Positions 35,781 to 62,108 of a stretch of DNA of 64,000 bases are shown piece after piece. The notes beneath the pieces were generated by a model that had not been told where the DNA came from, did no database searches, and saw nothing but the letters and a program-made list of their open reading frames with translations. Made by a program: the position numbers and the translations under genes. The number at the start of each line of letters is the position of its first letter. Positions within the stretch are counted from its first letter, which is position 1. This DNA is from Candidatus Krumholzibacteriota bacterium (GTDB taxonomy: Bacteria > Krumholzibacteriota > Krumholzibacteriia > JAJRXK01), in assembly GCA_963764625.1 (NCBI GenBank), contig CAVXTH010000009.1:832001-896000 (forward strand), read 5' to 3'.

Positions 35781-36985
35781 CGCCGCTCCACGTACTCGGT
35801 GAGCAGTTTGGCGAAGTCGTCGGCGATGTGATCGCCCTGCAGAGTGGTGAAGAGTTCCCCATCGACGTACACCGGAGCCCGGGGTGATTCGCCGGTGCCC
35901 GGCAGAGAGATCCCGATGTCGGCGTGCTTGCTCTCTCCGGGTCCGTTGACCACGCAGCCCATTACCGCCACATTCATCGCCTCCACTCCGGGATATTCCT
36001 TTCTCCACTGGGCCATCTTCACGCGTAGCTCGCCCTCGATTCGCGCCGCCAGCTCCTGGAAGTAGGTCGAGGTCGTGCGTCCGCAGCCCGGACACGCCGC
36101 CACCTGAGGAGTGAAATTCGCGAGTCCCATCGACTGCAGGATCTGTTGGCAGACGAAAACCTCCTCCGCGCGATCGCCTCCCGGTTGTGGAGTGAGACTC
36201 ACGCGAATCGTGTCGCCGATTCCCTCTTGAAGGAGGATCGCGATGGCGGCGGTGGAGGCCACCATGCCTTTCATCCCCATGCCCGCTTCGGTCAGACCGA
36301 GGTGGAGAGGATAGTCGCACCGGGAGGCGAGTGACTCGTAGACCGCGACGAGGTCCTGCAACGCACTGGTCTTTACGCTGAGGACAATCTGGTCGTGGCG
36401 GAGTCCTTCCGCCTCGGCCGCTTCTGCGCTGTCGAGCGCACTGCGCACCATGGCTTCGCGATACACCGCTCTGAAGTCCAGAGAATCGTCCCTGCCGGCG
36501 TTCTCATCCATGAGGGAGGTGAGCAGGTTCTGATCGAGCGAGCCCCAGTTTACGCCGATGCGGATGGATTTTCCGTGCGCGATGGCGGTCTGGACCATGG
36601 CCTTGAAGTTGAGATCGTGCGTGCGCGAAGTGCCCACGTTTCCCGGATTGATCCGATACTTGTCGAGGGTCTCCGCGCAGCCGGGAAACTCGGCGAGAAG
36701 GCGATGGCCGTTGTAGTGGAAATCTCCGATCAGAGGTACCTGTAGTCCTCGGTCCAGGAGCTTTTTTCTTATGGCGGGAACCGCATTCGCGGCTTGTGGC
36801 GTGTTGACCGTCACCCGCACCAACTGGCTGCCGGCCACAACGAGCTGCGCGATCTGCGCGGCCGTCTGCTCGACGTCCTCGGTGGGCGTGTTCGTCATGC
36901 TCTGCACCACGATGGGGTGGCAGGAGCCGATCGGAACGGAGCCGATCCAACAGCTCGGGGTTTCCCTTCTCGCTCGCGTCATCAC
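35762..36985 (-). CDS. ispG: HMBPP synthase
   Basis: 'VQSMTNT', 'RINPGN', 'RIGVNWGSL', 'HLGLTEAG', 'CPGCGRT', '[10 protein letters not shown]'. Confidence 0.97.
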
Positions 36986-39981: not shown

Positions 39982-40012
39982 GCCGTCTCTCGCCAATCGA
40001 GGGCTTCTACGA

Positions 40013-46928: not shown

Positions 46929-47997
46929 TCAGCCGCTCGATCGCGCGCGAGGCGAGGCCGAAGCGGAGCGATTTCGTCTCTGCACCAGCTGACCGCAGGC
47001 TGCCGCGACCTCACCGCCAGCGCTGTCTCTCACGGTGCAAACGATTCCCGCGGCCCACAGACGATCCGCGAAGCGCTTCACTCGTTCGGCGGAAGGCCGC
47101 TTGCCGCTGAAGCCCTCGATTTCGTTGAGGGGAATCAGATTTACCTTGAACAGACCTCCGCGCGCGAGAGCGGCGAGGCGCTCGGCCGCTTCCTCGTCGT
47201 CGTTGTCGCCGGCGATGAGGACGCACTCGAGGGTGAGCTTGCGGGCCGTGCGTCGCGCGTAAGCCGCGCCTAACTCGAGGACCTCATGCATCGCCTCCAC
47301 TCCGGCCACCGGCATCAGGCGGCGCCGGGCATCGGGCGAGGCGGTGGTCAGCGAAAGAGCCAGCCCGTAGGGCCGCTCTAGCTCGTGAAGTCGACGCATT
47401 CCCTCCAGCGGTCCGCTGGTCGAGATCGTGATGTGTCTGGCGCCGATGGCCAGCCCTTTGGGATGCGAGAGGATTCGCAGGGCCTTCTTCAGATTGTCGA
47501 AATTGTCGAGCGGCTCGCCCATTCCCATGAACACCAGATTCGCCTGGCGAGAAGTGGGATGAAGTCGCGAGAGATGGATCACCTGCGCCACGATCTCTCC
47601 CGGTTGCAGTTGGCGACGCAGGCCCATGCGCGCTGTCGCGCAGAACACACAGGCCATGCGACATCCCACCTGAGTGGAGAGGCAGAACGTCCGACGGCTC
47701 GTCTCCATCGCGATGGCCACCGACTCGATTCGCTGCTGATCTCGCGAGTTCGAAGAGGTGCTTCACCGTTCCATCCGCCGCTAGCTTCTGCCCGACCTGC
47801 CGGAGGCGAGTGAATCCGTACTCGCTCTCCAGTCGACTCCTCAAGCCCAGGGGCAGGGCGCTGAGTTCTTCGATCGACTTGGCTTTTCTCTGGTAGATTC
47901 CATGCGCGAGCTGTCGGCCGCGGTAGGGAGCCTCACCCAGCGAGACGAGGAGCTCTTCCAGCTCCTGGGGGTTGAGATCGTGCAGACGAGGAGGCAT
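46929..47997 (-). CDS. rlmN: Radical-SAM RNA methyltransferase RlmN; frameshift near 47735
   Basis: 'DGTVK.LF' (ORF 47284-47997) then 'CLSTQVGCRMACVFC', 'MGMGEP', 'AACGQL' (ORF 46929-47720). Confidence 0.9.
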
Positions 47998-48073
47998 GGT
48001 GAACTCGCGAGCCTTGACAGTCTCCGGGATGCAGGATCAAGTTGCTAGCAAACTCGAGGGAGAACTTTGGAAG

Positions 48074-48460
48074 ATGGCTAAGAGTATAGAAGGAACCAAG
48101 ACCAGCGGCGAGGACGGTCTGGCCCAGCTGCTGGCCGCGGCCGGAGACGATCTCCGCCTGAGGATCCTGGAATTCGTTGCCCGCGAGCCGAAGTCCGTCT
48201 CACAGATCTGCCAGGAGCTGGAGGCGGCGCAGCCGAGGGTCTCGCACCATCTGGGGATTCTGCGCCGCTGCGGCCTCTTGTCGGTAAAGACCAAGGGACG
48301 GCAACGAGTGTATCGGTGGGCGCAGCCGGGTGGCGGCTCGGCGGCGTTCGATCTACAGACTCTCTTGCGGCGATGGTTGGGCTTGCGCGAGGGCGCCCAT
48401 GCGAGGGCCGAAAAGCCCGGCGGGGCCGAGAGTCAGCAGCTCGAAGATTTTCTTCTCTGA
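48074..48460 (+). CDS. ArsR/SmtB family transcriptional regulator
   Basis: 'RLRIL', 'SVSQI...L...QPRVSHHL..LR..GL.....GRQRVY'. Confidence 0.85.
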   Translation: MAKSIEGTKTSGEDGLAQLLAAAGDDLRLRILEFVAREPKSVSQICQELEAAQPRVSHHLGILRRCGLLSVKTKGRQRVYRWAQPGGGSAAFDLQTLLRRWLGLREGAHARAEKPGGAESQQLEDFLL

Positions 48461-48475: not shown

Positions 48476-49897
48476 ATGGATTCCAGGAAGGGACGGATCC
48501 TCATCGCGGATGACGACTCGGGACTGCGCGCGATGGTGCGGCAAGTCCTGGAATACGATGGCTTCGAAGTGGTCGAGGCCGAGGACGGTCCCCATGCGCT
48601 AAGGGAGCTGCGCAAGGGAATCTGCGAAGTCTTGTTGCTGGACGTCAAGATGCCGGGGATGGACGGCTTCGAGGTCATGAGCGCGATGCAGAGCGAAGGC
48701 CTCGATGTTCCGGTGGTGGTGATCTCCGCGCACGAGGCGGTCTCCAACGCAGTCGAAGCGATCCGGCGCGGGGCCTACGACTTCCTGGAAAAACCCTTCA
48801 AGCGGGAAGCGCTGAAGGTGCGGGTCCAGAAAGCGCAGGAGCACATGCGCCTGAAGCGGGCGAACCGGGAACTGGCCGAGTCTTCCGCCCGCGGCGGCGA
48901 GATCATCGGGGACGGCCCCTCCATTCGCCACGTGAAGGAACTGCTCGAGAAAGTCGCGCCAACTCCGGCCAGAGTTCTCATCACCGGAGAAAACGGAACC
49001 GGCAAGGAGCTCCTGGCCCGAGCGATCCACATGCGGTCCTCGCGCGCCAGTGGGCCGTTCGTGGAATTGAACTGCGCTGCGATTCCGGGCGATCTCATCG
49101 AGAGCGAACTCTTCGGTCACGAGCGCGGAGCCTTCACCGGAGCCGAACGCCGTCGGCTGGGCAAGTTCGAGAGGGCCGACCGCGGGACGATCTTCCTGGA
49201 TGAGATCGGGGACATGAGTCAGGCCGCGCAGGCGAAGGTCTTGCGCGCGTTGGAGACCTCGACCTTCGAGAGGGTCGGAGGGCAAGATCTGATCCACGTG
49301 GATGTCCGGGTGATCTCGGCCACGAATCGGGAGCTCCAGAATGAGAGCTCGGGTTTCAGGGAGGATCTGTTCTATCGACTCAACGTCATCCAGATCCACC
49401 TGCCTCCTCTGCGGGAACGCCCGGAGGACATCGAGGGTCTCTTCCTCCACTTCCTCAGGATCGCGGCACTGGAGATGGGACAGAGAGTGAAGGGGGTGGA
49501 CGATGGGGTGCTCGAGATCCTGAAGCGACAGCCGTGGCGGGGGAATATCCGTGAGTTGAGAAATCTGGCCGAGCGCCTGGCCATCGTGGCTCCGGACGAA
49601 AAGATCCACGAGGCGGATTTGAGCGTGCTGGCCGGGAGTGAGGCCACGAAAGGCGAACACGAGGACGTGTTCGCCAGCTCCACCTTCAACGAGTTCAAGG
49701 CGGCCAGCGAAGCCCTGTTTCTGCAGGGAAAGCTGCGGGAGTTCAGCTACAACGTGAGCCGAACCGCCGAGGAGCTGGAAATGCAGCGAAGCAATCTCTA
49801 TAAGAAGATCCAGCGCTACGACCTCGGACCTCCGGCTGAGCGATTTGTCCGGGGGCGCTTGACCCCGTGCACTGGAGCTACGTATTGTGTACACTAG
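48476..49897 (+). CDS. Sigma-54-dependent response regulator (REC-AAA+-HTH, NtrX/ZraR-like)
   Basis: REC 'IADDD..LLDVKMP', 'GENGTGKE', 'GAFTGA', 'FLDEI', Fis-type HTH. Confidence 0.93.
   Translation: MDSRKGRILIADDDSGLRAMVRQVLEYDGFEVVEAEDGPHALRELRKGICEVLLLDVKMPGMDGFEVMSAMQSEGLDVPVVVISAHEAVSNAVEAIRRGAYDFLEKPFKREALKVRVQKAQEHMRLKRANRELAESSARGGEIIGDGPSIRHVKELLEKVAPTPARVLITGENGTGKELLARAIHMRSSRASGPFVELNCAAIPGDLIESELFGHERGAFTGAERRRLGKFERADRGTIFLDEIGDMSQAAQAKVLRALETSTFERVGGQDLIHVDVRVISATNRELQNESSGFREDLFYRLNVIQIHLPPLRERPEDIEGLFLHFLRIAALEMGQRVKGVDDGVLEILKRQPWRGNIRELRNLAERLAIVAPDEKIHEADLSVLAGSEATKGEHEDVFASSTFNEFKAASEALFLQGKLREFSYNVSRTAEELEMQRSNLYKKIQRYDLGPPAERFVRGRLTPCTGATYCVH
49859..49888 (+). promoter_or_regulatory. 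Possible sigma-70 promoter for the peptide/activator pair
   Basis: TTGACC-N18-TATTGT about 105 nt upstream of ATG 49993. Confidence 0.35.
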
Positions 49898-49992
49898 ATT
49901 TGGGCAAGGGCCCGTGTGAGCGGAATTGGTCTGCCGTAGGCGATCGGGAGCTGTCGGCCAACGCCGACACGATTGCCTGAGGAGATTTGATC

Positions 49993-50343
49993 ATGATCAG
50001 CAATAGGAAAGCCCTGACGATCGTAAGCGCTCTCTTGATCTTCGCGACAGCGTGGCTGGTGACCCCGGCCAGCGCGAAGGAAATGAGTCTCCGAATCGAT
50101 GCGACCGACGGCGCTACATCCTACTCCGGCTCCGGGTAAGCACGACTGGGGGCGGCGGAAGTTTCATCAAGGGGACTCCGACGACGGAGAACGGAGATCC
50201 CGATGAGCTGACCGGAGGCAACCTGTCGGTCTGGGCTCCGACCAGCCCGAGCTTCGCAAGATTCGTCCGTGCTGGTGAGTCTTTGGCGGGGACTGGTTAG
50301 CTGGATCCAGGGCAGTGCAAACCGATTCGTGGAGGCACGCTAG
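49993..50343 (+). CDS. Small secreted pro-peptide (48 aa as read, to TAA 50139; about 116 aa if two compensating indels are corrected)
   Basis: GAGGAG RBS; signal peptide MISNRKALTIVSALLIFATAWLVTPASA; shifted-frame middle 'TTENGDPDELTGGN'; original-frame tail 'LVSLWRGLVSWIQGSANRFVEAR*'. Confidence 0.65.
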
Positions 50344-50419
50344 GACAGTACGAGTTCGAGGAATCTCGCTTTTCTCAAAGCGGTATCTCTAGTTGAACCC
50401 TTCTCGCCCAAGGGATGCC

Positions 50420-53400
50420 ATGCAGGAGTTTCGAGAGGGAGAAGAGGGCCACGGGCCTTCCTCCTCAAGTCCAAGCAATAGCGCTGAAAATCCCGCTCTG
50501 CTGCGGACCGAGCAGGTGGGGGATCTCCACTATGACGGCGCTGCTTACTCCTCAGCCATGGAGTATTACCGTTCTGCGCTCCGCAGCGGAGCGGAGTTGA
50601 GTAACGTGCCCGCCGAATCGGTCGCACGACTGCATCGCAAACTCGCCGATTGTTTTCTCCAACAGGGACTCCCCAGCGAAGCCGCGCGCGAACTGGGCCG
50701 GGCCGAGAGGCTTCTGCCCGACTCCGCCGGTCTCGCGCATGCCGTACTGCGGGTCCGTAGGGCCCTGGTGTGCTTTCGGCAAGGCCGGTACCGCAAGGCA
50801 CAGGCACTGGCCATGGAGGGGTTCAGGGAGCTGGCGACCTCCGACCGTCACCGCGAGGTCGGAAACGCCCAGATGATTCTGGGAAACTGCGCCATGCGGC
50901 TCGGGCGCCTGGAGAAAGCCGATGAGTTCTTTCAAGACGCGCTGGCCACCTTCCGGCGCGTGGACCTCCCGCTAGGACAGGCGCAGGCGCTCATCAACCT
51001 CGCGACTCTGGCCAAGAACGAATGCCGTTGGGCCAGCGCCCTGCAGCTCTTTTCCAAGGCGGAGGCCATCGTCAGAGATCGCGGACATTCTCACGAGCTC
51101 GCGGTGTTGCACAACAGCATGGCGGTGCTCTATCGCAAGATGGGACGCCGGGCCGAGGCCATGGCTCAGGTGGAACGCGGTCTCGAGTTGGGCCGCAATC
51201 TCGGCGATCAGAGTCGACTCACGCGCCTGCGCCTCTTGAAGGGGCAGATCCTGGTGGATGAGGGTCGCTTCGCCGAGGCCGAACAGAATTTGCTCGAGGC
51301 CCGGGTCCTGGCGGAGCGGAGACAGACCGGCCGTGATCTGGCACTTGCGGACGAGTTCTTGGGCGACCTCATGGCAGCGCAAGAGCGCTTCGAAGAGGCC
51401 GAACTCAACTACCGTCTGGCCGAAAAGCGCGCCCAGGCCATGGGTCCCGCCACCGACATCCAAGCCGAGGTTCTCAGACGCCGCGCCGAACTCGCGCTTC
51501 GTCAGGGCGACTCGAGCCGGGCCCTCTCCCTGGCGAACCAGGGCATCCGCGTCGCCGAGGCCTGTGGTGAACGCTTCGAGCTACCCTTCTTCGAAAGGGT
51601 GATCGGTCTCGCGCTCGCCGGGCGCGGGGAGTATCAGCCCGCCCGCGACGCGCTCGAATCGGCTCTGGCGCGCGTGAGTGAATACCGTCTTCCGGTGCAG
51701 ATGCGGAGGATCCTGCGGGACCTGGCCCATCTACACATGCGGCAGGAGGGCCGCGAGTCGCTGCTTCTGGCTCGCACCCGGTTGCGGGAAGTGTCGGAAA
51801 TCGCCGACGAGAACAGCGAGTACTCCCCCTGCCAGGTTCAGTTGGATCTCGCGCGCGTAGAGTTGAACCTGGGCGAGTTCGATGAAGCGCTCCTCGCGCT
51901 CTATGAGCTCGAGCGACTGTCTTGCATGGGAAGTCACGATGAACTCGCGCGGGACGTCCAGGCTCTGCGATCTGAGATCGAAGACGCCCTGTCCCAGGAC
52001 GCGGAGGACATCTCCTCGCACTATCAGGCTCTGGCGGATCTGCCCGAACTTCTGGATGGCGACAAACCGGACGCCGAGCGCAACTTGAGAACCATGCTGC
52101 TGGCTTTGGCCGATCGCCTCGCGGCGGATCGCGCGTTCTTGGCGATCCAGGAGGGCGACGGCGTCCCGCGGATTCTCTCGAGTCATCATCTGCCGCGCGG
52201 ACGGGCCGCGGGCATTGCGCGCCACGTGCTTTCTCTCTTGGATGCGGCCAGTGGTCCCAGAGTGTGGACGAATCCGCAGGCGGACGCGGCGTGGAGCGGG
52301 CTCGGCGCGGAGGAATTGCGCGAGATCCAGACCGCGGCGGCCCTCTCGCTGGGACGCTCCGGTACCCTTCAGGCCCTCATGTACTTCGACTGTCAGCCTC
52401 GCAAGGGGGCCCGGCGCGGCTTCAACAACGAAGCGCTCGCGGTGGCCGCGAGCTACGTCGAGCTCCTGCGCGCTCCGATCTTCGATCTCGCGCGCGGAGG
52501 ACGGGCCGCTACGGGCAACCGCGCGTTCCTGCTGGAAGAGGCCTTCGAGAACATCATTACCGAGAGCGACGCGATGGTGGAGGTCCTTCGTCTCTGCGCG
52601 AAAGTCGCGCCGACGCCGTACTCGGTTCTCTTCACCGGAGAGACGGGAACCGGCAAGGGCCTCTTGGCCTACGCGGTTCATCGCTTCAGCCCGCGCGGAC
52701 AGAAGCGCTTCGTCTCCTTGAACTGCGCGGCCATGCCGGAGAGCTTGCTCGAGAGCGAGCTGTTCGGACACGTGAAGGGCGCATTCACTGGAGCCAACCG
52801 GACCCACAAAGGGCTCATCCCGGGCGCCGACGGAGGTACGCTCTTCCTGGACGAGATCGGGAAGATGAGCTTGCCCATGCAAGCGAAGCTCCTGCATTTC
52901 CTCGACAGCAAGGAAGTGCGACCAGTCGGGGGCGGGGAGAGCCAGATCGTCGACGTGCGCGTGCTCAGCGCCAGCATGCGCGATCTGAAAGAGATGGTCC
53001 GGCAGGAACTCTTCCTGGAAGATCTCTACTATCGTCTTCTCGATTTCCCCATCGACGTGCCCCCGCTACGCGATCGCGCGGATGACATCCTCCTTTTGGC
53101 GCGGCATTACCTCGACCGCGTCTGTGGTGAGTTGGGCCGCCCGATTCCCCAGATGACGCGTGGGTTCGCGAGTGGCCTGAGGTCGTACTCGTGGCCGGGA
53201 AACGTTCGAGAGCTGGAGAAGGTGATTCGGCGCGCGGTCATTTTGAGCGTGGGCGAGGATCGCTTGCAGGCTAAGGATCTCCCCGACTCCTGCCGGGGCA
53301 AGCTCGCCGCCGAGGGAGAGGACCAGCCGGTCAATCCCATCCAGCCTCTGAAGGACGAAGTCGCCGAGTTCGAGAAAGTGCTGCTGGAGAGAGCACTCAC

Positions 53401-53503
53401 CAGTTGCGGGTGGAATCGCAGTGAGGCGGCGCGACGCTTGAAAATCAGCTATCCCACCATGCTGCAGAAGATCAAGCGCTACGGTCTGAGTATTCCCAAC
53501 TAG
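50420..53503 (+). CDS. Sigma-54 enhancer-binding protein, TPR-GAF-AAA+-HTH
   Basis: Long N-terminal TPR-like helical region, GAF-like segment, 'GETGTGKG', 'ESELFGHVKGAFTGA', 'FLDEI', 'WPGNVREL', Fis HTH. Confidence 0.92.
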   Translation: MQEFREGEEGHGPSSSSPSNSAENPALLRTEQVGDLHYDGAAYSSAMEYYRSALRSGAELSNVPAESVARLHRKLADCFLQQGLPSEAARELGRAERLLPDSAGLAHAVLRVRRALVCFRQGRYRKAQALAMEGFRELATSDRHREVGNAQMILGNCAMRLGRLEKADEFFQDALATFRRVDLPLGQAQALINLATLAKNECRWASALQLFSKAEAIVRDRGHSHELAVLHNSMAVLYRKMGRRAEAMAQVERGLELGRNLGDQSRLTRLRLLKGQILVDEGRFAEAEQNLLEARVLAERRQTGRDLALADEFLGDLMAAQERFEEAELNYRLAEKRAQAMGPATDIQAEVLRRRAELALRQGDSSRALSLANQGIRVAEACGERFELPFFERVIGLALAGRGEYQPARDALESALARVSEYRLPVQMRRILRDLAHLHMRQEGRESLLLARTRLREVSEIADENSEYSPCQVQLDLARVELNLGEFDEALLALYELERLSCMGSHDELARDVQALRSEIEDALSQDAEDISSHYQALADLPELLDGDKPDAERNLRTMLLALADRLAADRAFLAIQEGDGVPRILSSHHLPRGRAAGIARHVLSLLDAASGPRVWTNPQADAAWSGLGAEELREIQTAAALSLGRSGTLQALMYFDCQPRKGARRGFNNEALAVAASYVELLRAPIFDLARGGRAATGNRAFLLEEAFENIITESDAMVEVLRLCAKVAPTPYSVLFTGETGTGKGLLAYAVHRFSPRGQKRFVSLNCAAMPESLLESELFGHVKGAFTGANRTHKGLIPGADGGTLFLDEIGKMSLPMQAKLLHFLDSKEVRPVGGGESQIVDVRVLSASMRDLKEMVRQELFLEDLYYRLLDFPIDVPPLRDRADDILLLARHYLDRVCGELGRPIPQMTRGFASGLRSYSWPGNVRELEKVIRRAVILSVGEDRLQAKDLPDSCRGKLAAEGEDQPVNPIQPLKDEVAEFEKVLLERALTSCGWNRSEAARRLKISYPTMLQKIKRYGLSIPN

Positions 53504-53515
53504 CCTCGCCCTGAC

Positions 53516-53591
53516 CCATCAATTCTCTTGATAGGCGTTAAGTCCACTGTTCATAGGGCCTTGGTTCCAAGGCTCTTCTCCATCCTATCAA
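53516..53591. promoter_or_regulatory. Candidate upstream activator (enhancer) sites
   Basis: Dyad ATCAA-N5-TTGAT(AGG) at 53518-53535 and a matching half-site CCTATCAA at 53584-53591. Confidence 0.45.
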
Positions 53592-53704
53592 AGAACTTTC
53601 CAACCGAATCCCCGGGCGCGAGGCACCGCGATCCGAGCTGCGGACAGAGCTTGCAACTCATTGAATTCCAATGAGATAGGAATGCCGCTGCACGGCGGAC
53701 TCGC

Positions 53705-53720
53705 TGGCACGGGGACTGCA
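53705..53720 (+). promoter_or_regulatory. Sigma-54 -24/-12 promoter P1
   Basis: TGGCACGGGGACTGCA (GG-N10-GC); IHF-like CAACTCATTGAAT at 53654-53666. Confidence 0.8.
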
Positions 53721-53730
53721 ATGGGGAATG

Positions 53731-54115
53731 GTGGCTGGAGTCACTTAGGCAATCGTGGTCCGGTCGTCCAGTTGGCCCTTGGGGCCGCAAAGCTATCGGA
53801 GGACGGGGTGGGAACGCTCCTCTCCGTCAACCGGCTGAAAGAGGTTGTTTTCCATCAATTCGGTCCGTCGGTTCGTCAGCACGAGGTGGGGTCGGGCTGA
53901 GGATTTCGGCGGAAGCTAGGAAGACAGCGCTTTCACACCGTCCTCCGAAACATCCCATGGGATGCAGTGAGAGAGGTCAAGGAGAGATCCGACACGAGAC
54001 TCCCCGGCATCCAGGACTGGCGAGATCCTGGAGCGGCCAATCAGGGGAATGGTCTGGTGAACCACTCACCGAGATCCTATGGTTGCGAGAGCCGTCCCTG
54101 TGGGACGGCTCTCGT
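53731..54115 (+). ncRNA. Candidate sigma-54-dependent structured ncRNA
   Basis: No credible ORF; 23-bp long-range stem 53796-53818/53926-53948; small hairpins; perfect 13-bp closing hairpin 54086-54114. Confidence 0.55.
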
Positions 54116-54354
54116 GCGTCCGGTCCCCACCTCGCGCCGACACCGCAAGCCCTCGGGTTGCGAGCTACCGCCAGCCCCTGAGTGTCTCCTCCCGGAGACG
54201 ATTCTATGTCCCGATGGCGACAACTTCCGCCCCGCAGTCTCCTGGTCTTCATCCTTTCGGAGGGGGGGGGCGGCGTGATTGAGGATTTGAAACCATTGAA
54301 CAACAAGGGCTTATGAGCCTATCCGGGGTTGCAGCCGAGCCGACTCAGAGGCGG

Positions 54355-54370
54355 TGGCATGGCGGCTGCG
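54355..54370 (+). promoter_or_regulatory. Sigma-54 -24/-12 promoter P2
   Basis: TGGCATGGCGGCTGCG (GG-N10-GC); IHF-like CAACAAGGGCTTA at 54301-54313; 55 nt before ATG 54425. Confidence 0.65.
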
Positions 54371-54424
54371 AGGCATGGGGCAAGGGACGGGGATGCGGAG
54401 GGCCTTCGGACGAAGGAGAGAGCC

Positions 54425-55363
54425 ATGAACAGAGCCAGCAACAGACAGTCTCGAGCCCGCCGGTGGCCGCTTTCGAGCGCGGTTCTGGTGCTCTCGCTCG
54501 CGCTCTTGGGCCTCCTCTTCGCGGGATGCGACGAGAACGACGATCTGGTGGACGTCACGCCTCCGGCCATTCCCAACGGGGTGAGTTCGATCACCGGGGA
54601 TTCGGTACTGTGGGTGATCTGGAACGCCAACCGCGAGCCCGATCTGGCCGGTTACCGGGTCTACTCCACCACCCAAGTCGACGGGAATTACGATCCGGTG
54701 AACTGGCAGCTGCTGCTCGAGGTGGGCAGCCCGTTTCCGGACATCCCCAACCTGGTCAGCTACGAACCCAATGCGAACGAGGGAAAGCCCTATCTGGTCT
54801 TCGAGGATCACACCGTCGACAACGGCTATGACTACTATTACGCGATCAGCGCCTTCGACGACGCGGGCAACGAGAGCGCTCTCTCCACCGACTACGTGGT
54901 GGACACTCCGCGGCCGGAGGGCGAGATCACCCTCAGCGCGGCCAGCGTGGATTCCTCGCGCGCCGGATTCGACTTCAGCGAGGAGACGAGACGGTATCCG
55001 GCCGACGTGTTCAGCGATTGCAGCTTCGATATCGTCAACGGAATCCCTCTCTTCACGGCCCAGGCCCCCTGGGTGAGGATGCAGGATTATGGGGACGTGG
55101 ACTTCGACACCGCCAGCTGGGCTCCCGAGTTCGGCTGGTCACAGGCCGGCGTGATGGAGGCGATCGAAGGTCACAGCTACTTCTTCGAGATCGTAGATGG
55201 GCAGCAGCTCAACTACGCCAAGGTTTTCGTGGAGACCATTTCGCAAAACAACGGCACGATTAAATTGATGTGGGGCTACCAGCCCGTCGAGGGTCTACCC
55301 GAGCTCAAGCGGCCTCAGGCGGCTCTTCCGCCGCGAGGTTCAGGGAAGGAGAGCTCACAATGA
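54425..55363 (+). CDS. Lipoprotein with FN3-like domain
   Basis: Lipobox LFAGC; 'DVTPPAIP.G', 'W..N.EPDLAGYRVY', 'YYYAISAFD..GNES'. Confidence 0.82.
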   Translation: MNRASNRQSRARRWPLSSAVLVLSLALLGLLFAGCDENDDLVDVTPPAIPNGVSSITGDSVLWVIWNANREPDLAGYRVYSTTQVDGNYDPVNWQLLLEVGSPFPDIPNLVSYEPNANEGKPYLVFEDHTVDNGYDYYYAISAFDDAGNESALSTDYVVDTPRPEGEITLSAASVDSSRAGFDFSEETRRYPADVFSDCSFDIVNGIPLFTAQAPWVRMQDYGDVDFDTASWAPEFGWSQAGVMEAIEGHSYFFEIVDGQQLNYAKVFVETISQNNGTIKLMWGYQPVEGLPELKRPQAALPPRGSGKESSQ

Positions 55364-57206
55364 AAACGCGAATCCAAACCATGCTTTCCCTTTTTCTGAC
55401 GCTGATCATTTGGGCGCGCTATGCCCTCGACTTCGGTCGCCACCATGGTCACTCCAACCACCGTTCTCTCGCTCCAGAATGAACCCAAGGCCGGCGATTC
55501 CTCGGCCGACGAGGTCCGCTACGCTTCGCGCGAACTGAGGGTGAGGGTGTGGCACGACAAGGACGACGACGCGGTCTACGCCCGCGGCGAAGCCCTTCAG
55601 TTGTACTTTCGTACCAACGACGACGCGTACGTGGTGCTCTACTACATCGACGCCGACGGTTACACGGAGATCCTCTGGCCGCAGAGTCGCTTTGACGACG
55701 GATTCGTGTTTGGCGGACACACCTACTCCATTCCGGGACGTTCCGCCGATCAGGGGCTGTGGGTTTCGCAGTCCAAGGGCGTGGAGTACGTGGAAGCGAT
55801 TGCCAGCCAGTATCCTTTCGATCTGCGCGAGCTGGCGATCGACTTCCGCTACGGGCCGGACGAAACCGGCGAGTACGCGCACCGGGTGTCGGGGGATCCG
55901 TTCCTGGCGGTGAACGACATCAACTACGCGATCACCGGCCTCGACGAAGACGTGGACTGGCTGGTCACGGACTGGACACACATCTACGTCGACCAGAAGG
56001 TGGATTACCCGCGCTACACCTGCACGCAGTGCCACGCGGGGAACGATCCAAAGTATGCTCCCTACACCAGCACCTGCACTCAGGTGAACATCTACGCCGA
56101 CTGGGGTTGGTACTCGCACTGGTACGCGAGCTTCGGGTACTACCCGCTGTACTGCGACGCGCCCTACTACTACTGGGACCGTTTCCTGTACCGGCCCTAC
56201 TACTACAGCTACTACCCGATCTATTACTCCTGGCCCGGCTGGAACTGCTACGTGCGGTCCTATCCGGTGTACGCCTGGAGAACCCACCCACGGTATCGGG
56301 GGGACTACGTGACGCTCTACCAGAGGGGCGTGGTCAAGGATCGCCCGCTCTACGATCCGCGCGTGCGCGAACCCTCGTCGGTGCGCGGCCGGGATCCGAG
56401 CCGGATCCCTCCCAGCATCGCGCGCCGTGGGCCCGAGGACTCACAGCGTCCTAGGCGGGTGGACCGCGATCAACTGACACGGAACGAGATGCCGGTGCGG
56501 CAGCCACGAGACCGTACGCTGACTCCCTCCTCGGGGGGAAGCGGACGCGAGCGCGCCGGAGTGCGGCCCTCGCGCGCAAGGCCGACGAGGACCGTGCGCA
56601 GCCTGGATCCGAACGGTTCCACCAGCGAACGCTCCCACCGTCCGCGATCGAAATGCCGGTAGTGACTCAGGCGCCGCGAGCACGAGTCACGGGCGCCGCT
56701 GGACGCGGCCGGTCGTGCGCAACGCTCCGGCCAATCGCGTATCTCCAGCACCGAGGCAGAGCGAGGGGTCCAGGGCGCGACCGCGCAAGGGTAGCAGCGG
56801 CAGTGTGCGCAAGCCCGATTCACCGCGGCAGGGAGAGCGGCAGAAAGTCTCTCCTCCGCCTCGCCAGTCACAGCCGCGAAAGAGCCAGGCCGCGCCAAGG
56901 CTGAAATCCCGTGATACGAAGCAACGCTCGGGCGGCCGAGATTCCAAAGGCGCGCCACACGCGTCTTCGGTCAGGGCCCCGCGTTCGGGCGGTTCGCCGA
57001 GCCAAGGAACTCAGGTGCGACGGAGTCCGTCCGGCGCTTCATCGAGGCAAGGGTACTCCGCAGCCTCGAGGAGTCCGTCGCAGGGCGCCTCGAGGGCGCG
57101 CGTCACTCCGTCGCGAACTCCCTCGGCTCCGCGCCCGTCCGGCGGCGCGCGTTCGGGTGGATCACGGGGATCCAGTGGCAACGGACGCAGGGGAGGTCGC
57201 GGATAG
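55360..57206 (+). CDS. Secreted DUF4384-like protein with CxxCH, Tyr-rich region and R/S/G-rich tail (frameshifts near 55410 and 56650)
   Basis: ATGA overlap; 'VY..GE.LQLYFRTNDDAYVVLY.ID.DG...ILWP'; 'CTQCH'; tail continues in ORF 56715-57206. Confidence 0.7.
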
Positions 57207-57431
57207 CAACTCGCGATTGATTTGAGTGAGGGATTCCCACTCGGCCTGAATGGCGCGAGCGGGCCGCGAGTTCCTTCCCATCGATGGTTGGCAGCCGAAT
57301 GTGGGAGGGGGGAATCAGCGGACTTTGGGGGCCCTCTTGGGAGAGGGGCAAAAGGCCAAATTTGTCGATCAGGGGCGACGATGCAGGACCGGACGCTCCT
57401 CTCCCGCGACTTGGGGTGGTGGATGTGGTGA

Positions 57432-57469
57432 GAAGGGGCGGCGGTTGACCCTGCCGCCGTCTCCTTTTT
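57432..57469 (+). terminator. Intrinsic terminator ending a structured intergenic element
   Basis: GGCGGCGG-TTGACC-CTGCCGCC then TTTTT; 42 nt before ATG 57512. Confidence 0.7.
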
Positions 57470-57511
57470 ATACTCCCGGCTCCAATTCTCTCTGACCAGG
57501 AACGAGCACGC

Positions 57512-60500
57512 ATGACCTTCAGCCGCGGGTCTTGGGCCGCTCTGGCGCTCCTCACCCTCCTCCAGCTTCCGCTCTCTCCCGAGGTGGCGGCAAGCACCGA
57601 AACCAGGCCGTGGTTTCAATCCTCATCCCCGGCTTCCGCGATAGCCACGCGTCAGCTTCTCGCACGGGCCTCTCGCCCCATGCGCTTCAGCGGCGCCAAG
57701 CTGAGTCAGATCGACGCCTTCCAGTCGCACAAAGCGCCCGCCCTACTACGCATGCTCGTAGTGGGGTGCGACTTCTCCGACAGTCTGCTCTGGGGGCGTG
57801 ACCGCTCGCAGTTCGTCGGTTGGCCGGCTCCCGCCCGCCAGGGAAACTTCCTGTTCAACGACGAAGGAAAGGCGATCACCGACGCACAGGGGAATCCCAT
57901 CTACGAATTCGCCGCGCACGATTCCACCTACTTCGACCTCCAGATGCGCAAGACGGCGGACTACTTCACGACCGTCTCGCAAGGGACGTTCGACTTGCAG
58001 TGGCAGGCCCTGTCGACGCTGGTGAACCTGCCCGAGCCGATGGGTTACTACGGCGCCGACCAGGACAACAACGATCGGTTGGTGGAGATGGCCAAGGCGG
58101 TCGTGGAGGCGGTCGATTCCGAAGTGGATTTCAGCAGCTTCGACACCCTCGTACTCGTCCACGCCGGGGCGGGACGCGAGACGGATATCAACAACGACAG
58201 CCCCCAACAGCTCTTCTCGAACTATCTCGACCGTCGTGATTTCGAACAGGCCATGGCGGACACCGTATTGTCCGAGCCGGGAATCCCCACTCAAGACGGC
58301 GTGTTGATCCGCCACGTTCTCATTCTGCCTGAGTCGGAAACCCAGGACCCGGTCGTCTCCCTGGGTCTCAACGGTTTCTTCGGGATGCGTGGGGTCTATT
58401 GCTTCGAGGTGGGTCTGCGACTGGGGATGCTCAGCCTGGCCGATTTCACTCCCTCGGGCCGTCCCGACAGCCAGGGCATCGGGAACTACGGCCTGATGGG
58501 GTATGGGCTGTTCACCGGCTTGGGGATCGTGCCGGCCGAGCCGTGCGCCATGAATCGCATGCTCATGGGTTGGGTGGATGCGGTCGAGATCGACTCGGAC
58601 AGCGCGCGTCGAATTGCCTCCCATCGAAACCGGAGTGGGCGACACGCTTCTGGTCAAGGTGCCCATCACCGACCGCGAGTATTTCCTCCTCGAGTATCGC
58701 CTGCAGGATCCCGACGGGAGCTTCACCTTCACTTTCGACGACCTCAACGGAAATCGGGTGCCCGATTTCTACGACGCGGACAGCGACAGTCGATCGGAAT
58801 TTTCTCAATGGACAGCCGAGCTCGACCTTCGATCCCGCCACCGACACCTGGGAGAGCACCCAGGGGGCGGAGTGGGATTTCTTCATGAGCGAGTTTCCGG
58901 TGGAGGACTCGGATGGTCCGGGTAGGGGACCGGGGCGGGGCAACGGACTCTACGTGTGGCACATCGACGAGCGGGTCATTCTGGAATCGTCTACTCGCCG
59001 GCACGAACGACATCAACTCCGATCCCCATCGGAAGGGAGTCGATCTCGAAGAGGCGGATGGAGTCCAGGATCTCGACACTCTCAAGGCCTCTCGCTTTCT
59101 CTTGGGATGGGATCGCGACTGTTTTCGTGGGGAGGGAGTGCTGATCGGAGATGAGCTCTTCGGCACTCGCTTCGCGGACGACACGCTTCCCAACGCCCTG
59201 AGCGCCGACGGCGCCTCGATCGGGTTCTCCATCAGCGAAATCGACAGCGTGCAGTTGGGGGTCGAAGGCTGCGCCGTGGGACCTGACTGTCCTTTGGGCG
59301 GACGCTTTACCTGTACCGCGATCGCCTGGGCTTCACTCTCGGCTTCGCCCGGCCCTGCACGCTCCGGGGGTAACCCTCGCCGCGGCACAAAAGCTCGACG
59401 CGGACGGACCTCGCTACGAGGTGCGTCTGGCCGACCTCGACGGAGACGGGCGGCCCGAGATCCTGCTCGCCGGCGATCAGGGTGCGCTGCTCGCCTTCCA
59501 CGGCGATCTCACTCCCTGGCAGGCCGGGGCCGATCCTCAAAACCCTACGTGCTCGCGCGCGCCATGGGGCAAGACGGCCCCCCGCAGTGGCTGGGGGCCC
59601 CCGTGATCGGAGACCTGGATGGCAATGGCACTCCGGAGATCTTTCTCAGTGCGCGCGACGGGGTCTACGCGTTCGATCCCCAGGGGAATGAACTGCGGGA
59701 TGGCGACGCGAATCCCTCGACTCTCGGTCTGTTCTTGCTCCCGCCCGCACTCGACGCCGAGCCCACCGAGCTCTCCCACCCCTGCCTTCTCGCTCCTCAC
59801 GACGGTGACCTCGCGGTCTTCTCCCCGGTCGCGCGTGCGGACCTGGTCGTGATCGCGCGCGGCAAGCAGGAGGGGGCCAAGGTGGGCGCGAGTCTGGTGG
59901 AATGGGACGGCGTGAGCCAGCCCACCGTGCTCACCTCCTCGGACCGCTCGGACGGGACGGCACGCCGTGGCGTCCTGAGCCAAGGATCCACCGGGGCACT
60001 CTATCTGTCGGTGGGTGGGGGGATCCCGCAGAACTTCTCGGGGCGGATCCTGCTGCGCCCCCCCGCAAAAGCGGCCAAGGCAGCGTTCACTCCTCCGCCC
60101 CCGCCGATCGTGGAGACGCCTTCGGTGCTCTTGAGCATTCGTCTCCGCGGCGACGGGATCTACGATCTGGTGATGGTCGACACCCTGGGAGTCCCCCGAG
60201 TGCCGCTGGCGACGCACGGAAGCTCACTTCCCTCTCCCTGGTCGGCTCTGGTGGGAGGGCCGGAGCGGCAGAACGGCGCTCCTGTCCTGGCGCTGGCGGC
60301 GGGGGATGCGCTCTGGCTCCTGGACCGGAATCTCTCACAAAGGTCCGACGGCCCCTACCGGCCATCCTATTCCACCGCGCAACTGCAGGGCGGAGTTCCC
60401 GCCGCTCCTCTCCTGGTGGATCTCGATGGCGACGGGACGGTGGAGGCGATCTGGCACGATCGGGTCGGGCGGGTGCACGCGGTCGACCTGAACTCCCGGA

Positions 60501-61069
60501 GTCTGCCCGGATGGCCGTGGCAGGGTCCCGGCGAACCCTCGGGGTCGCCCGCGGTGGGCGATGTGAACGGCGATGGCAGCCTCGAGCTCGTTCTGGCGTC
60601 CGGATTCGACGCTCTTTTGGGGACGGACGCGGATGAGCGACTTCCGCTCACTCGGCGCATCGGTGAGCTGCGGGTGTATGCACTCCAGATTCCGAGCACG
60701 CGTTTCGCTCCCTGGACTCAGGGAGGCGCCAACGCCTGGGGCACGGGCCATCAGGCTCTCGCTTCGAGCGCCAGCGCGGCCGTCTCCGGCGGCGAGGCGT
60801 TCAGCAACGGGGATCTCTTCGTCTATCCCAATCCAGTAGATGGTCCTAAGGTCCATCTGCGCGTCCGGCTGAGTCGTACGGCCCTGGTGAGTTCGAGCAT
60901 TTTCGATCTCCAGGGACAGGTCGTCCGGCAGACCGGAATCATCCGCGGCGAAGGACCCGGCCAGTTGGAGTTCGAGTTTTCAGTGACCGGTCTCGCGGCC
61001 GGTCTGTATGTGGCCAAAGTGGAAACGGAGGGCAGCGTGGCCCTCAAGCCCTTTGCTCTCGTGCGATGA
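57512..61069 (+). CDS. Immune-inhibitor-A (M6)-like domain + FG-GAP repeats + T9SS-type C-terminal domain; several frameshifts
   Basis: 'DFSSFD...VHAGAG.E', 'GIG.YGLMG.G', 'EYFLLEYR', 'GLYVWHIDE', 'DLEEADG', 'DLDGDG' repeats, 'YPNP...IFDLQG..V...LAAGLY'. Confidence 0.78.
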
Positions 61070-61161
61070 GCTGGTGGACTTTGCCAAGGTCCGCGCGAGA
61101 GCTGTATACTCAATGCTCGAATCCGTGCCGCGCAATCGGCCTGAACGGTTGGGAGAGCTTC

Positions 61162-62094
61162 ATGCGCAATTCCTCGTGTATCGCCCTCGCGGCGCTTTTC
61201 ATTTTCCTGGCGAGCGTGCCTCCCTCGTGGGCAGGGAATCCAGGAGATGCCGGCTTTCTGTCCTTGAGGATGGGAATCGGCGCGCGCAACGGCGCGATGG
61301 GCGACGTTGGGGTGGCCGAATCGACCGGCGCCACCGCGATGTACTACAACCCGGCCAATCTCGTGTACACCTCAGGTACGGACGTCACTCTCCAGCACGT
61401 CGAGCACTTCAGCCTCTTTCGCCAGGAGGCGGCCGCGATCAGCCACCGGCTGCCCCGGGGCGCCGTAGGGCTCATCTTCAGCGGCTTTTACGTAAATGAT
61501 GCCATCCCCTTGACCACTCTGGATCGCATCGGGGTTTCCCAGGGCGATTTCCAACCCTACCAGCTCGCGGTGGGTCTGGGTTACGCCTACCAGTTCCACG
61601 ATTTCTCGCTGGGATTGGTGGGAAAGTTCCTCTACGAGCGCATCGAGTCCTACGGCGCGGCGGGCCTGGCGCTCGACTTCGGGATCAGCCATCGCAGCAA
61701 GATTCCAGGTCTCACCCTGGCCGCCGCGGTCGCCAATCTCGGCGGCCAGATGACGGTGAAAGAGGAGCCCTACGATCTTCCGTTCACCACGCGTCTGGGG
61801 GCCAGCTATACCCCCCACACCGAAGGGAAGGGACTCGCCCAGAACCTCACCCTGGCCACTGACCTGGTCCTGCCCAACGACGGAAACGGGCGGCTCCACG
61901 TGGGAGGAGAACTCCGCCTCCATTCCAGTTTCGCGGTGCGGGCCGGATATCGCTTCAACTACGATACCTACGGGCTCACCGCCGGCTTGGGCTTTCACAC
62001 GGGGAATTTGACGGTGGACTACGCGTTCATGGACAACGGAAACGAGCTCTCGGACGACCACCGCATCTCGCTGTCCTTCGCGTTCTTGCCGTAG
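61162..62094 (+). CDS. PorV/PorQ family outer-membrane beta-barrel
   Basis: 'FL.L..GAR..AMG', 'A.YYNPA', 'LP.T.RLG', 'R.GY', 'G.G.....DYA', 'HRISL'. Confidence 0.85.
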   Translation: MRNSSCIALAALFIFLASVPPSWAGNPGDAGFLSLRMGIGARNGAMGDVGVAESTGATAMYYNPANLVYTSGTDVTLQHVEHFSLFRQEAAAISHRLPRGAVGLIFSGFYVNDAIPLTTLDRIGVSQGDFQPYQLAVGLGYAYQFHDFSLGLVGKFLYERIESYGAAGLALDFGISHRSKIPGLTLAAAVANLGGQMTVKEEPYDLPFTTRLGASYTPHTEGKGLAQNLTLATDLVLPNDGNGRLHVGGELRLHSSFAVRAGYRFNYDTYGLTAGLGFHTGNLTVDYAFMDNGNELSDDHRISLSFAFLP

Positions 62095-62108
62095 GCAAAG
62101 CGCTTGGC

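Follow-up and report, generated by a model that had tools for sequence, protein, structure and literature searches.

A conserved sigma-54 locus of the Krumholzibacteriota with a TPR-GAF activator, a structured RNA and a surface operon

Does a gene for a small exported protein, lying directly ahead of the gene for a sigma-54 activator with a TPR sensor, make a locus a peptide-sensing circuit with an RNA as its output? The question is raised by a 64,000-nt stretch of DNA from a Candidatus Krumholzibacteriota bacterium (the window: positions 832001-896000 of contig C9, CAVXTH010000009.1, in a 3.57-Mb, 9-contig genome of 62% GC). The original prediction for this locus had joined a peptide input of the RRNPP kind to a sigma-54 RNA output of the LuxO/Qrr kind, with one activator driving two promoters. 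The explanation that we favour, and hold to be probable on balance, is a phylum-wide core sigma-54 module of two separable units. The first unit would comprise the gene of a TPR-GAF-AAA+-HTH (helix-turn-helix) activator, a pair of palindromes (UAS1), a -24/-12 promoter (P1) and, closed by a terminator-like hairpin, an RNA of about 390 nt. Whichever activator binds UAS1, most likely the TPR-GAF protein itself, would have this RNA as its principal and perhaps its sole direct target. In the second unit, other palindromes (UAS2) and a second promoter (P2) would drive a surface operon for a lipoprotein, a DUF4384 protein, an M6-like cargo protein of the type IX secretion system (T9SS) and a PorV-like protein, and P2 would probably answer to an NtrC-type response regulator. 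Finally, as the RNA loop GGCGAG complements the CUCGCC loop of a leader hairpin that would sequester the ribosome-binding site (RBS) of the activator gene, pairing of the two loops would probably feed back on the translation of the RNA's own activator.

A structured RNA behind the TPR-GAF activator gene

The loci of 30 relatives were fetched and oriented with 2.5 kb of upstream and 10 kb of downstream sequence, giving 31 loci from 8 families when the window is counted. The order across the 31 loci is NtrC-type activator, small secreted protein, TPR activator, P1, a structured region free of open reading frames (ORFs), P2 and the operon of lipoprotein, DUF4384, M6-like (T9SS) and PorV-like genes. 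The single orientation originally ascribed to the gene set was borne out, all genes of the locus lying on the + strand in an order conserved across these loci, and the sizes of both intergenic gaps are conserved as well. Near-full-length matches to the TPR activator occur in 34 of 41 relatives, with one more interrupted by a contig end. Its TPR half is found in 204 of the 208 genomes of the phylum, including 124 of the 125 high-quality ones, in 9 families that all belong to one class. The module is a core circuit of the phylum and not a diversifying pherotype system.

P1 is the sole exact match to TGGCAY-N5-YTGCW in the window, where at least one match arises in 15 of 100 shuffles. Its counterpart lies 193-369 nt past the activator stop codon, ahead of the ORF-free structured region, in all 31 oriented loci. 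The rpoN gene is present in the genome (452.6 bits, cut-off 277), so that both P1 and P2 read as candidate -24/-12 promoters, with TGGCAC-N5-TTGC-type spacing in an organism that carries rpoN. By eye, many loci show an A/T-rich block that resembles a site for integration host factor (words such as AATCAGTTGC or TAACAANNTTAC) some 15-45 nt ahead of P1; in the window it is at 53661-53690.

The region behind P1 folds well and covaries. The segment 53731-54120 folds at -183.1 kcal/mol (z = -3.85), better than 100 of 100 shuffles, and an alignment of the P1-P2 interval shows invariant words amid a variable background. RNAalifold on the core of nine f1 sequences (f1 being one of the families) gave 49 pairs, 25 of them with compensatory changes, and a covariance model of the core scored 168.9 bits on the sense strand against 30.5 bits on the antisense strand. 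The loop of hairpin A is GGUGGGG in 28 of the 31 loci, with GUGUGGGG variants in the other three, and that of hairpin B is GGCGAG in 26. The stem of hairpin A is 76.8% paired (59.9% when shuffled) with 24 double-change cells (9.5 when shuffled), and that of hairpin B is 83.5% paired (57.0%) with 55 double-change cells (18.6); for neither stem did any of 500 shuffles reach these values. These figures come from ungapped, loop-anchored alignments, in which slid registers score lower. A search of Rfam with permissive filters over 49000-58000 on both strands returned no match at E <= 1.

The genome of the window has a single copy of the RNA. Model R1, built on f1, has exactly one match in each of 33 of the 151 class genomes (9 of 9 in f1, 23 of 43 in f2), 9 of the 33 being the f1 loci used to build it. 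Among the other 24 matches 21 could be placed, and 20 of these lie on the same contig and strand as the TPR match, 1.3-1.9 kb beyond it. In genome G009 the match falls on another contig because the activator reaches a contig end. Across the families the RNA measures about 300-500 nt. The terminator-like hairpin of the window has 14 bp, and the equivalent hairpin is followed by a U-run in f2, f3, f8 and some f1 loci. In two f8 loci (L049-L050) the RNA is longer by about 150-200 nt, with a long stem and a U-run between the domains of hairpins A and B; either two RNAs or an internal attenuator may account for this.

Could the conservation instead be that of coding sequence, with one or more small proteins encoded between P1 and P2? 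ORFs of 59-60 aa near P1 are common to the window and its two closest relatives, but these three loci are about 85-90% identical in DNA and the ORFs break in the next genus. No ORF of the interval is common to the families, and the frame into which a conserved block falls changes from locus to locus. The conservation tracks base-pairing, with G-U pairs and compensatory changes, and we regard a coding interval as very improbable. The inverted repeats could also be binding sites for a protein on DNA, as the UAS1 and UAS2 palindromes in the same intergenic space suggest, yet the stems of hairpins A and B vary with pairing kept while their loops are invariant, and a protein half-site would show the reverse. 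The helices also use G-U pairs, the model scores 138 bits higher in sense than in antisense, and the region is found in an RNA library; protein-binding DNA sites are hardly a credible account of these helices. The structured, ORF-free region of the original prediction therefore stands on its fold (z = -3.85), its covarying helices and the lack of an ORF common to the families. We take the RNA to be a new family, probably made as an independent transcript, our confidence in this being that in the favoured explanation as a whole.

The RNA library in question is a salt-marsh metatranscriptome (run X16). A 300-nt contig from it (depth 9.5, 6 differences) lies wholly inside 53747-54046, and another, of 551 nt (depth 7.67), takes in the small gene and the beginning of the activator gene. 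For the body of the activator gene there are read-sized contigs alone, at a depth of about 2, and the run has nothing on 54047-55638 or on 56017-62100. This uneven pattern fits RNA rather than contaminating DNA.

Table 1 Features of the locus, with positions in the window
Feature	Position	Strand	Basis or remark
NtrC-type response-regulator sigma-54 activator (REC-AAA+-HTH_8), first of two activators	48476..49897	+	Pfam: Response_reg, Sigma54_activat, AAA_lid_14, HTH_8
Small secreted protein gene, ~117 codons, split over three frames here	49993..50343	+	three-frame translation, alignment with intact genes
Activator leader hairpin CCCUU/AAGGG; run like a Shine-Dalgarno (SD) sequence as 3' arm, CUCGCC in loop	50386..50422	+	complementary to loop B
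TPR-GAF-AAA+(GAFTGA)-HTH_8 sigma-54 activator, 1027 aa from ATG	50420..53503	+	Pfam, translation, GAF by profile and fold
Gap between activator and lipoprotein genes	53504-54424 (~920 nt)
UAS1, two palindromes TRTHAA-N5-TTDAYA	53517-53533, 53586-53602	.	-188 and -119 from P1
P1, predicted sigma-54 -24/-12 promoter TGGCACGGGGACTGCA	53705..53720	+	motif match, positional conservation
Structured non-coding RNA, ~390 nt	53731..54116	+	start predicted from P1; end = terminator-like hairpin 54085-54116
RNA core three-way domain	53794-53952	+
RNA hairpin A loop GGUGGGG	53885-53891	+
RNA hairpin B loop GGCGAG	54019-54024	+
UAS2, TGTC-N10-GAC(A/G) at 54183-54200 and TGTCC-N6-GGACA with one mismatch at 54207-54222	54183..54222	.	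upstream of P2
P2, predicted sigma-54 -24/-12 promoter TGGCATGGCGGCTGCG heading surface operon	54355..54370	+	conserved position
Lipoprotein, lipobox LFAGC	54425..55363	+	translation; homologue downstream in 29/30 loci
DUF4384-domain protein, tail rich in Tyr and in Arg/Ser	55421..56662	+	PF14326, 62.2 bits
Homologue of M6-like metalloproteases (apparently inactivated), with FG-GAP repeat and C-terminal T9SS sorting domain	57512..61069	+	frame-broken at ~58600-59000
PorV/PorQ-family outer-membrane protein	61066..62094	+	NF033709, 149.8 bits (cut-off 90)

Two promoters, two sets of palindromes and two activators

A counterpart of P2 lies 529-814 nt after P1, just before the lipoprotein gene, in 26 of the 31 loci. 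In four f3 loci (L045-L048) the RNA and the lipoprotein operon are separated by an insert of 3-7 kb that has ORFs on both strands, and all four have a -24/-12 box directly ahead of the displaced lipoprotein gene. The second promoter of the original prediction was thus recovered, in the 26 loci and in the four with a displaced operon.

Each promoter has palindromes of its own. UAS1, a 17-bp palindrome that starts within about 15 nt of the activator stop codon, is present with at most one mismatch in at least one copy no more than 330 nt upstream of P1 in 25 of the 31 loci, against 5 matches in the other 458 kb of these loci; there are usually two copies, near -190 and -120, and a stricter form occurs in 21 of 31. 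Genome-wide it has 11 matches in 3.57 Mb, 2 of them at the locus. UAS2, as TGTCC-N6-10-GGACA with at most one mismatch, lies 136-244 nt upstream of P2 in 21 of the 26 loci that have P2 in the gap, with 23 further matches in the roughly 5 kb scanned per locus. As a motif for finding a regulon, UAS2 was dropped as too common (449 matches genome-wide).

There are likewise two activators. By tblastn, 25 of the 30 fetched loci have a homologue of the response-regulator activator ahead of the TPR activator. Family f3 accounts for the five in which the fetched sequence has none (L043 and L045-L048), and in at least two f3 genomes (G021, G026) the homologue is found about 2.6 kb further upstream. Given that this second activator is conserved and that the palindromes at P1 and P2 differ, a single TPR activator driving both promoters, as originally proposed, is unlikely. 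The arrangement most likely assigns one activator to each promoter, with the TPR-GAF protein taken for P1 by adjacency; since UAS2 differs from UAS1, P2 is probably served by the other activator.

The P2 region also bears on another account of the RNA, as a long cis-acting leader (a riboswitch or attenuator) of the lipoprotein operon, with P2 as a secondary internal promoter. In 25 of 30 loci the operon directly neighbours the RNA and shares its strand, the terminator-like hairpin of the window has no U-run, and there is some sequence conservation between this hairpin and P2. However, an enhancer-type palindrome and a full -24/-12 box stand between the RNA and the operon, a U-run does follow the hairpin in some f1 loci and in f2, f3 and f8, and P2 has stayed with the operon in the four f3 loci with the insert. 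Moreover, locus L060 keeps P1 and the RNA region with no operon within the 10 kb fetched, and the RNA-library contig stops at 54046, ahead of the stretch on which that run has nothing. A cis-acting leader is therefore unlikely, and an RNA that is separate from the operon remains the reading that we prefer.

As to what this separate RNA may do, the leader of its activator offers a candidate target. The sequence CTCGCC stands directly 5' of the SD-like run in 19 of the 31 loci (all f1 and f2 loci and 4 of 5 in f3), and two f4 loci have UCGCCA further upstream in the activator leader. In f1, f2 and f3, CUCGCC occupies the 7-nt loop of a predicted hairpin whose stem differs between loci (CCCUU/AAGGG, CCCG/CGGG and others). 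The duplex of loop B and leader has calculated energies of -11.6 to -15.7 kcal/mol in the loci with a leader hairpin, and the 5 loci that lack hairpin B all lack CTCGCC. For the other two leaders, 6-mers complementary to loops A and B were found in 9 of 26 P2 leaders and 7 of 29 small-gene leaders, which does not exceed the background of 0.29 per 130-nt window. Taken by itself, loop-loop feedback of the RNA on activator translation is plausible, if tentative.

Several points weigh against the two-unit explanation. The loci share descent, so the counts across them are non-independent, and the UAS1 and UAS2 motifs were derived from the very loci used for counting them, which makes those counts descriptive. 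UAS2 is a weak motif, with its 449 matches across the genome, and the assignment of activators to promoters follows adjacency alone. At E <= 0.001, model R1 finds nothing in f3-f9 (0 of 98 genomes), a limit of the model and not absence of the RNA, which in these families is recognised by motifs and position alone. The terminator-like hairpin of the window lacks the U-run. Expression of the RNA is attested by a single contig, from one run of a related strain, and a contig reveals neither the strand nor the ends of a transcript; transcript ends, strand and sigma-54 dependence are predictions from sequence. The pairing of loop B with the leader amounts to just 6-7 bp and was found post hoc among the three leaders examined. 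Its duplex energy is equalled by 1 to 38 of 200 shuffled leaders in single loci and by 65 of 200 in L057, and f7 and f8 have hairpin B with no CUCGCC in the leader. Nevertheless, the output side of the original prediction fared well: a conserved P1 would drive a conserved, covarying and ORF-free RNA in the LuxO/Qrr manner, while P2 would head the surface operon.

The small secreted protein and the input side

The TPR-GAF activator has the parts of a sigma-54 enhancer-binding protein. Pfam finds TPR repeats, Sigma54_activat (PF00158, 210.8 bits), AAA_lid_14 and HTH_8 (PF02954, 45.9 bits), and the GAFTGA loop is intact in the translation, so that a Sigma54_activat domain with GAFTGA is combined with a C-terminal Fis-type HTH. 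The GAF domain has no Pfam match in the activator. A profile built from 22 orthologues over the 180 residues before AAA+ matches solved GAF structures (3trc at 2.4e-5, Nlh2 4g3v at 1.5e-4, NifA 9qq6, and also 3e0y and 3hcy), and an AlphaFold model of the region (pLDDT 85.4) has 4g3v_A, the Nlh2 GAF, as its top Foldseek match (E = 3.4e-6, TM 0.55-0.59). On the strength of these profile and fold matches the TPR-GAF-AAA+-HTH reading with an intact GAFTGA, which the original prediction had given, holds. About 540 residues of long, conserved TPR repeats precede the GAF domain, and inspection of the translation revealed no membrane segment. The NCBIfam LuxO (NF041946, 242 bits, cut-off 800) and NifA (285.6 bits, cut-off 528.85) models match in the AAA+ half and the AAA+/HTH half only, respectively. 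GAF domains are the usual small-ligand sensors of such sigma-54 activators. The domain make-up suggests a small ligand for GAF and a protein partner for TPR as the input signals.

Two side observations concern this gene. In metagenome contigs the depth jumps to about 250x over the AAA+ core (52749-53155), with loose ends at 52788, 52826 and 52860; this is not a feature of the locus, as the conserved sigma-54 activator domain of other organisms cross-maps here. The activator orthologues of L055 (G023), L059 (G018) and G144 each have one in-frame TAG, near the C-terminus in G023 and G018.

The gene ahead of the activator had been read as encoding a short secreted pro-peptide. A conserved gene with a signal peptide is indeed present there, but the short pro-peptide is the truncated start of a protein of 91-124 aa. 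Aligned at the DNA level with the genes of L031 and L032, which are intact and encode 117 aa, the 48-aa ORF at 49993-50139 proves to be the first 48 codons of a 117-codon gene, of which the GDPDELTGGNLSV part lies in a different frame and the C-terminal SLWRGLVSWIQGSANRFVEAR is back in the first frame, with the stop at 50343. In 29 of 30 relatives the gap ahead of the TPR activator gene has an intact ORF of 91-124 aa, about 50-80 nt from the activator start. Homologous activators had been expected to keep this upstream ORF, a downstream promoter and a covarying RNA, and they do: the ORF in the 29 of 30, P1 in 31 of 31, and downstream an RNA whose hairpins A and B exceed 500 shuffles.

The small protein begins with a basic and hydrophobic stretch and an AxA-like site (signal peptide judged by eye). 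Its middle is rich in G, S, P and T and mostly of low complexity, with a GD(P/A)DD motif and an aromatic amphipathic helix; in f4 and f7 the order is swapped, with the helix before the motif. The G and D of this internal GD.DD motif, which is shared throughout the phylum, are the sole invariant residues, and the mean column identity is 20%. The gene seems to be well expressed. NCBIfam gave no family for the intact L031 protein, and Pfam none for the 82-aa middle-frame piece of the gene in the window. In the ESM Atlas the matches were nameless clusters of proteins of about 110 aa, under the label Candidatus Eiseniibacteriota, and structural rows of low TM; these are leads only.

The likeliest cause of the frame breaks is the many indel errors of a long-read assembly. 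Contigs of three related-strain runs (two of DNA, one of RNA) have 73 instead of 75 letters for 50070-50146, one letter fewer at 50254 and at 50313, and an extra T at 50305; by arithmetic, these indels keep the frame of the small gene open. The M6-like gene, the 3' end of the DUF4384 gene and rlmN are frame-broken in this assembly too, rlmN (46929-47997, - strand) consisting of two overlapping ORFs in different frames (RlmN_N at 47284-47997, Radical_SAM at 46929-47720). As rlmN is a housekeeping gene, its break suggests indel errors in the assembly. A near-identical run, X5, agrees with the window at the indel sites of the small gene, at a depth of 2; it may be the source sample, so it cannot decide between assembly error and a real pseudogene. 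For annotation, the lesson is that indel errors in long-read metagenome-assembled genomes can produce misleading mini-genes, such as the small-ORF "pro-peptide".

Can the full-length protein still be a pro-signal, which is exported, processed and re-imported to bind the TPR domain of an activator that drives P1 and P2? In 29 of 30 relatives a signal-peptide ORF immediately precedes the TPR activator gene, the 551-nt RNA-library contig runs across the small gene into the start of the activator gene, Opp/Dpp-type binding proteins are encoded at 3 loci of the genome, and the TPR region is long and conserved. On the other hand, the protein has 91-124 aa and the 48-aa form of the window is truncated; GD.DD is the sole invariant at 20% column identity, with helix and motif swapped in f4 and f7. 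Presence in 204 of 208 genomes comes with no sign of pherotype diversification, and the GAF domain is a conventional ligand input. Two activators and two palindromes stand against one activator serving both promoters, and with no membrane segment in the activator a periplasmic partner would need import or a transducer. A predicted complex of TPR residues 25-560 with residues 30-117 of the mature small protein scored 0.19 and 0.02 (mark 0.32); it was control-free with an uncertain partner fold, and counts neither way. Correlated distances between the small protein and the TPR domain would not discriminate either, as the two descend vertically in the same genomes. We consider a pro-signal unlikely.

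RRNPP denotes the Rap, NprR, PlcR, PrgX and Rgg peptide receptors. The locus resembles these systems in having a regulator, seemingly cytoplasmic, with a putative TPR-type sensor beside the gene of an exported small protein, and differs from them in its neighbour of 91-124 aa with an internal motif, in its effector, an AAA+ sigma-54 activator, and in its diderm host of the FCB group. An adjacent short exported pro-peptide with a C-terminal signal was not found here (91-124 aa, internal GD.DD, the 48-aa form truncated), and the TPR repeats are a candidate for a peptide-binding groove in a regulator with no membrane segment by inspection. The RRNPP-style input of the original prediction is accordingly unsupported, in view of the size and internal motif of the neighbour, the GAF domain, the second activator and the occurrence in 204 of 208 genomes.

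A bolder version is a self-contained envelope or cell-cell signalling loop. In this, the GD.DD protein would be exported and trimmed at the surface, perhaps by the T9SS/M6-like machinery of the operon, its fragment or state would be reported to the TPR domain, and the RNA would regulate targets and kiss the RBS hairpin of the activator. This is quite doubtful, slightly more so than the pro-signal. If true, the locus would have no characterised counterpart, being a diderm circuit in which a sigma-54 activator senses a peptide or protein and acts through an RNA.

The surface operon and comparison with known systems

Among the output genes, a lipoprotein homologue lies downstream of the activator in 29 of 30 loci by tblastn, 0.9-1.2 kb past the activator stop in 25 of them, and in those 25 loci the DUF4384, M6-like and PorV-like genes come next. 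The lipoprotein itself has no significant Pfam or NCBIfam match. Both pieces of the frame-broken M6-like gene match NCBIfam NF052323, 'T9SS-dependent M6-like inactivated metalloprotease', weakly (97.3 and 71.7 bits, cut-off 600). Its product carries FG-GAP_3 and the C-terminal Por_Secre_tail expected of a T9SS type A cargo (PF18962, 28.7 bits, cut-off 27; TIGR04183, 26.1 bits, cut-off 23). The lipoprotein, DUF4384 and M6-like/T9SS genes were thus confirmed as first described, by lipobox, Pfam scores and the weak NF052323 match. The call of a PorV gene was right at the level of the PorV/PorQ family (149.8 bits, cut-off 90) and failed at that of the PorV equivalog (NF033710, 56.3 bits, cut-off 250); the PorQ and PorV2 equivalogs likewise scored below their cut-offs. 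In relatives the DUF4384 protein probably extends past 56662, and their contigs have one base fewer at 56625.

Contigs of related strains show further single- or two-base indels in the DUF4384 and M6-like genes, the sites being 55420, 56625, 57327, 58991 and 59262-59547; the frames of the window break near 56662 and at about 58600-59000. Between these two genes, at 56715-57206 (+), lies a 163-aa ORF of nearly all Arg, Ser, Pro and Gly, which from its composition may be the displaced C-terminal tail of the DUF4384 protein; relatives have a gap of similar size (about 0.9 kb) to the region of this ORF.

On the output side the locus would work like NtrC/NrsZ or LuxO/Qrr, and is a new RNA family in a variant of a known design. 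According to a passage in PMC4253122, the intergenic region that directly follows the gene of the sigma-54 activator NtrC in Pseudomonas aeruginosa contains the gene of the RNA NrsZ, which NtrC drives from a TGGCAC-N5-TTGC promoter. The locus shares with it an ORF-free RNA gene with its own predicted -24/-12 promoter, directly downstream of an activator gene and ending before the next gene. NrsZ is processed to forms of about 40 and 140 nt, whereas the RNA here has about 390 nt with a multi-helix core. CrcZ is described, in a passage of PMC4063720, as an RNA that sequesters Hfq. NtrC and CbrB are plain response regulators, while the activator here has TPR and GAF sensor domains, and neither NrsZ nor CrcZ has sequence or Rfam similarity to this RNA. 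The crcZ gene lies downstream of cbrB and its RNA has about 400 nt; the CbrB/CrcZ arrangement resembles that of ntrC-nrsZ.

In Vibrio, a sigma-54 activator, LuxO, drives small RNAs, as stated in part of bioRxiv 10.1101/2021.07.01.450815. The activator here is not LuxO (242 against 800 bits), and Rfam gave no Qrr match; there is one RNA copy here against four or five Qrr, the RNA is about four times longer, and the input is not a phosphorelay on the TPR activator. Qrr RNAs feed back on the luxO mRNA, which the complementarity of loop B and activator leader would parallel. Aquifex Nlh2 and NifA have GAF directly before AAA+, as here, and differ in that about 540 TPR residues precede GAF here. 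With NF052323 and PorV/PorQ systems the locus shares an M6-like cargo with a T9SS sorting domain and a PorV/PorQ-family protein encoded by the next gene, at scores far below the equivalog cut-offs. No record of sigma-54 control of the NF052323 family was met.

Among the papers listed, none joined Krumholzibacteriota with sigma-54, and none of those on enhancer-binding proteins, TPR, sigma54 and small RNAs described a TPR-GAF activator with an RNA target. The matches listed for Krumholzibacter and sigma are ecological by title, with no description of the locus found in them. What is new here is the RNA family, its size and structure, the TPR-GAF sensor, the pairing with a second activator and a T9SS-linked operon, and its place in the core of an uncultured phylum. 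Few large conserved RNAs whose function is unknown have been described in bacteria, and time and again they have opened up new biochemistry. The locus adds an uncatalogued large structured RNA, apparently core to a whole uncultured phylum, with a defined promoter, a probable controlling neighbour and a candidate target on the mRNA of that neighbour. Two sigma-54 activators and a T9SS-linked surface operon give a first regulatory handle on the Krumholzibacteriota, and the two palindromes, promoters and activators form a compact set of parts that could be reconstituted in E. coli. The locus also fits the idea, put forward in a part of PMC3162934, that sigma-54 controls the cell exterior.

Among the remaining genes of the window, none for a histidine kinase is adjacent to the response-regulator activator; directly upstream of that activator, at 47972-48460 (+), is the gene of an ArsR-family HTH protein. 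Further away, at 36982-39996 (-), lies the gene of a 1004-aa protein that has both a PPDK_N (PEP-utilising, ATP-binding) domain and a weak match to a receiver domain.

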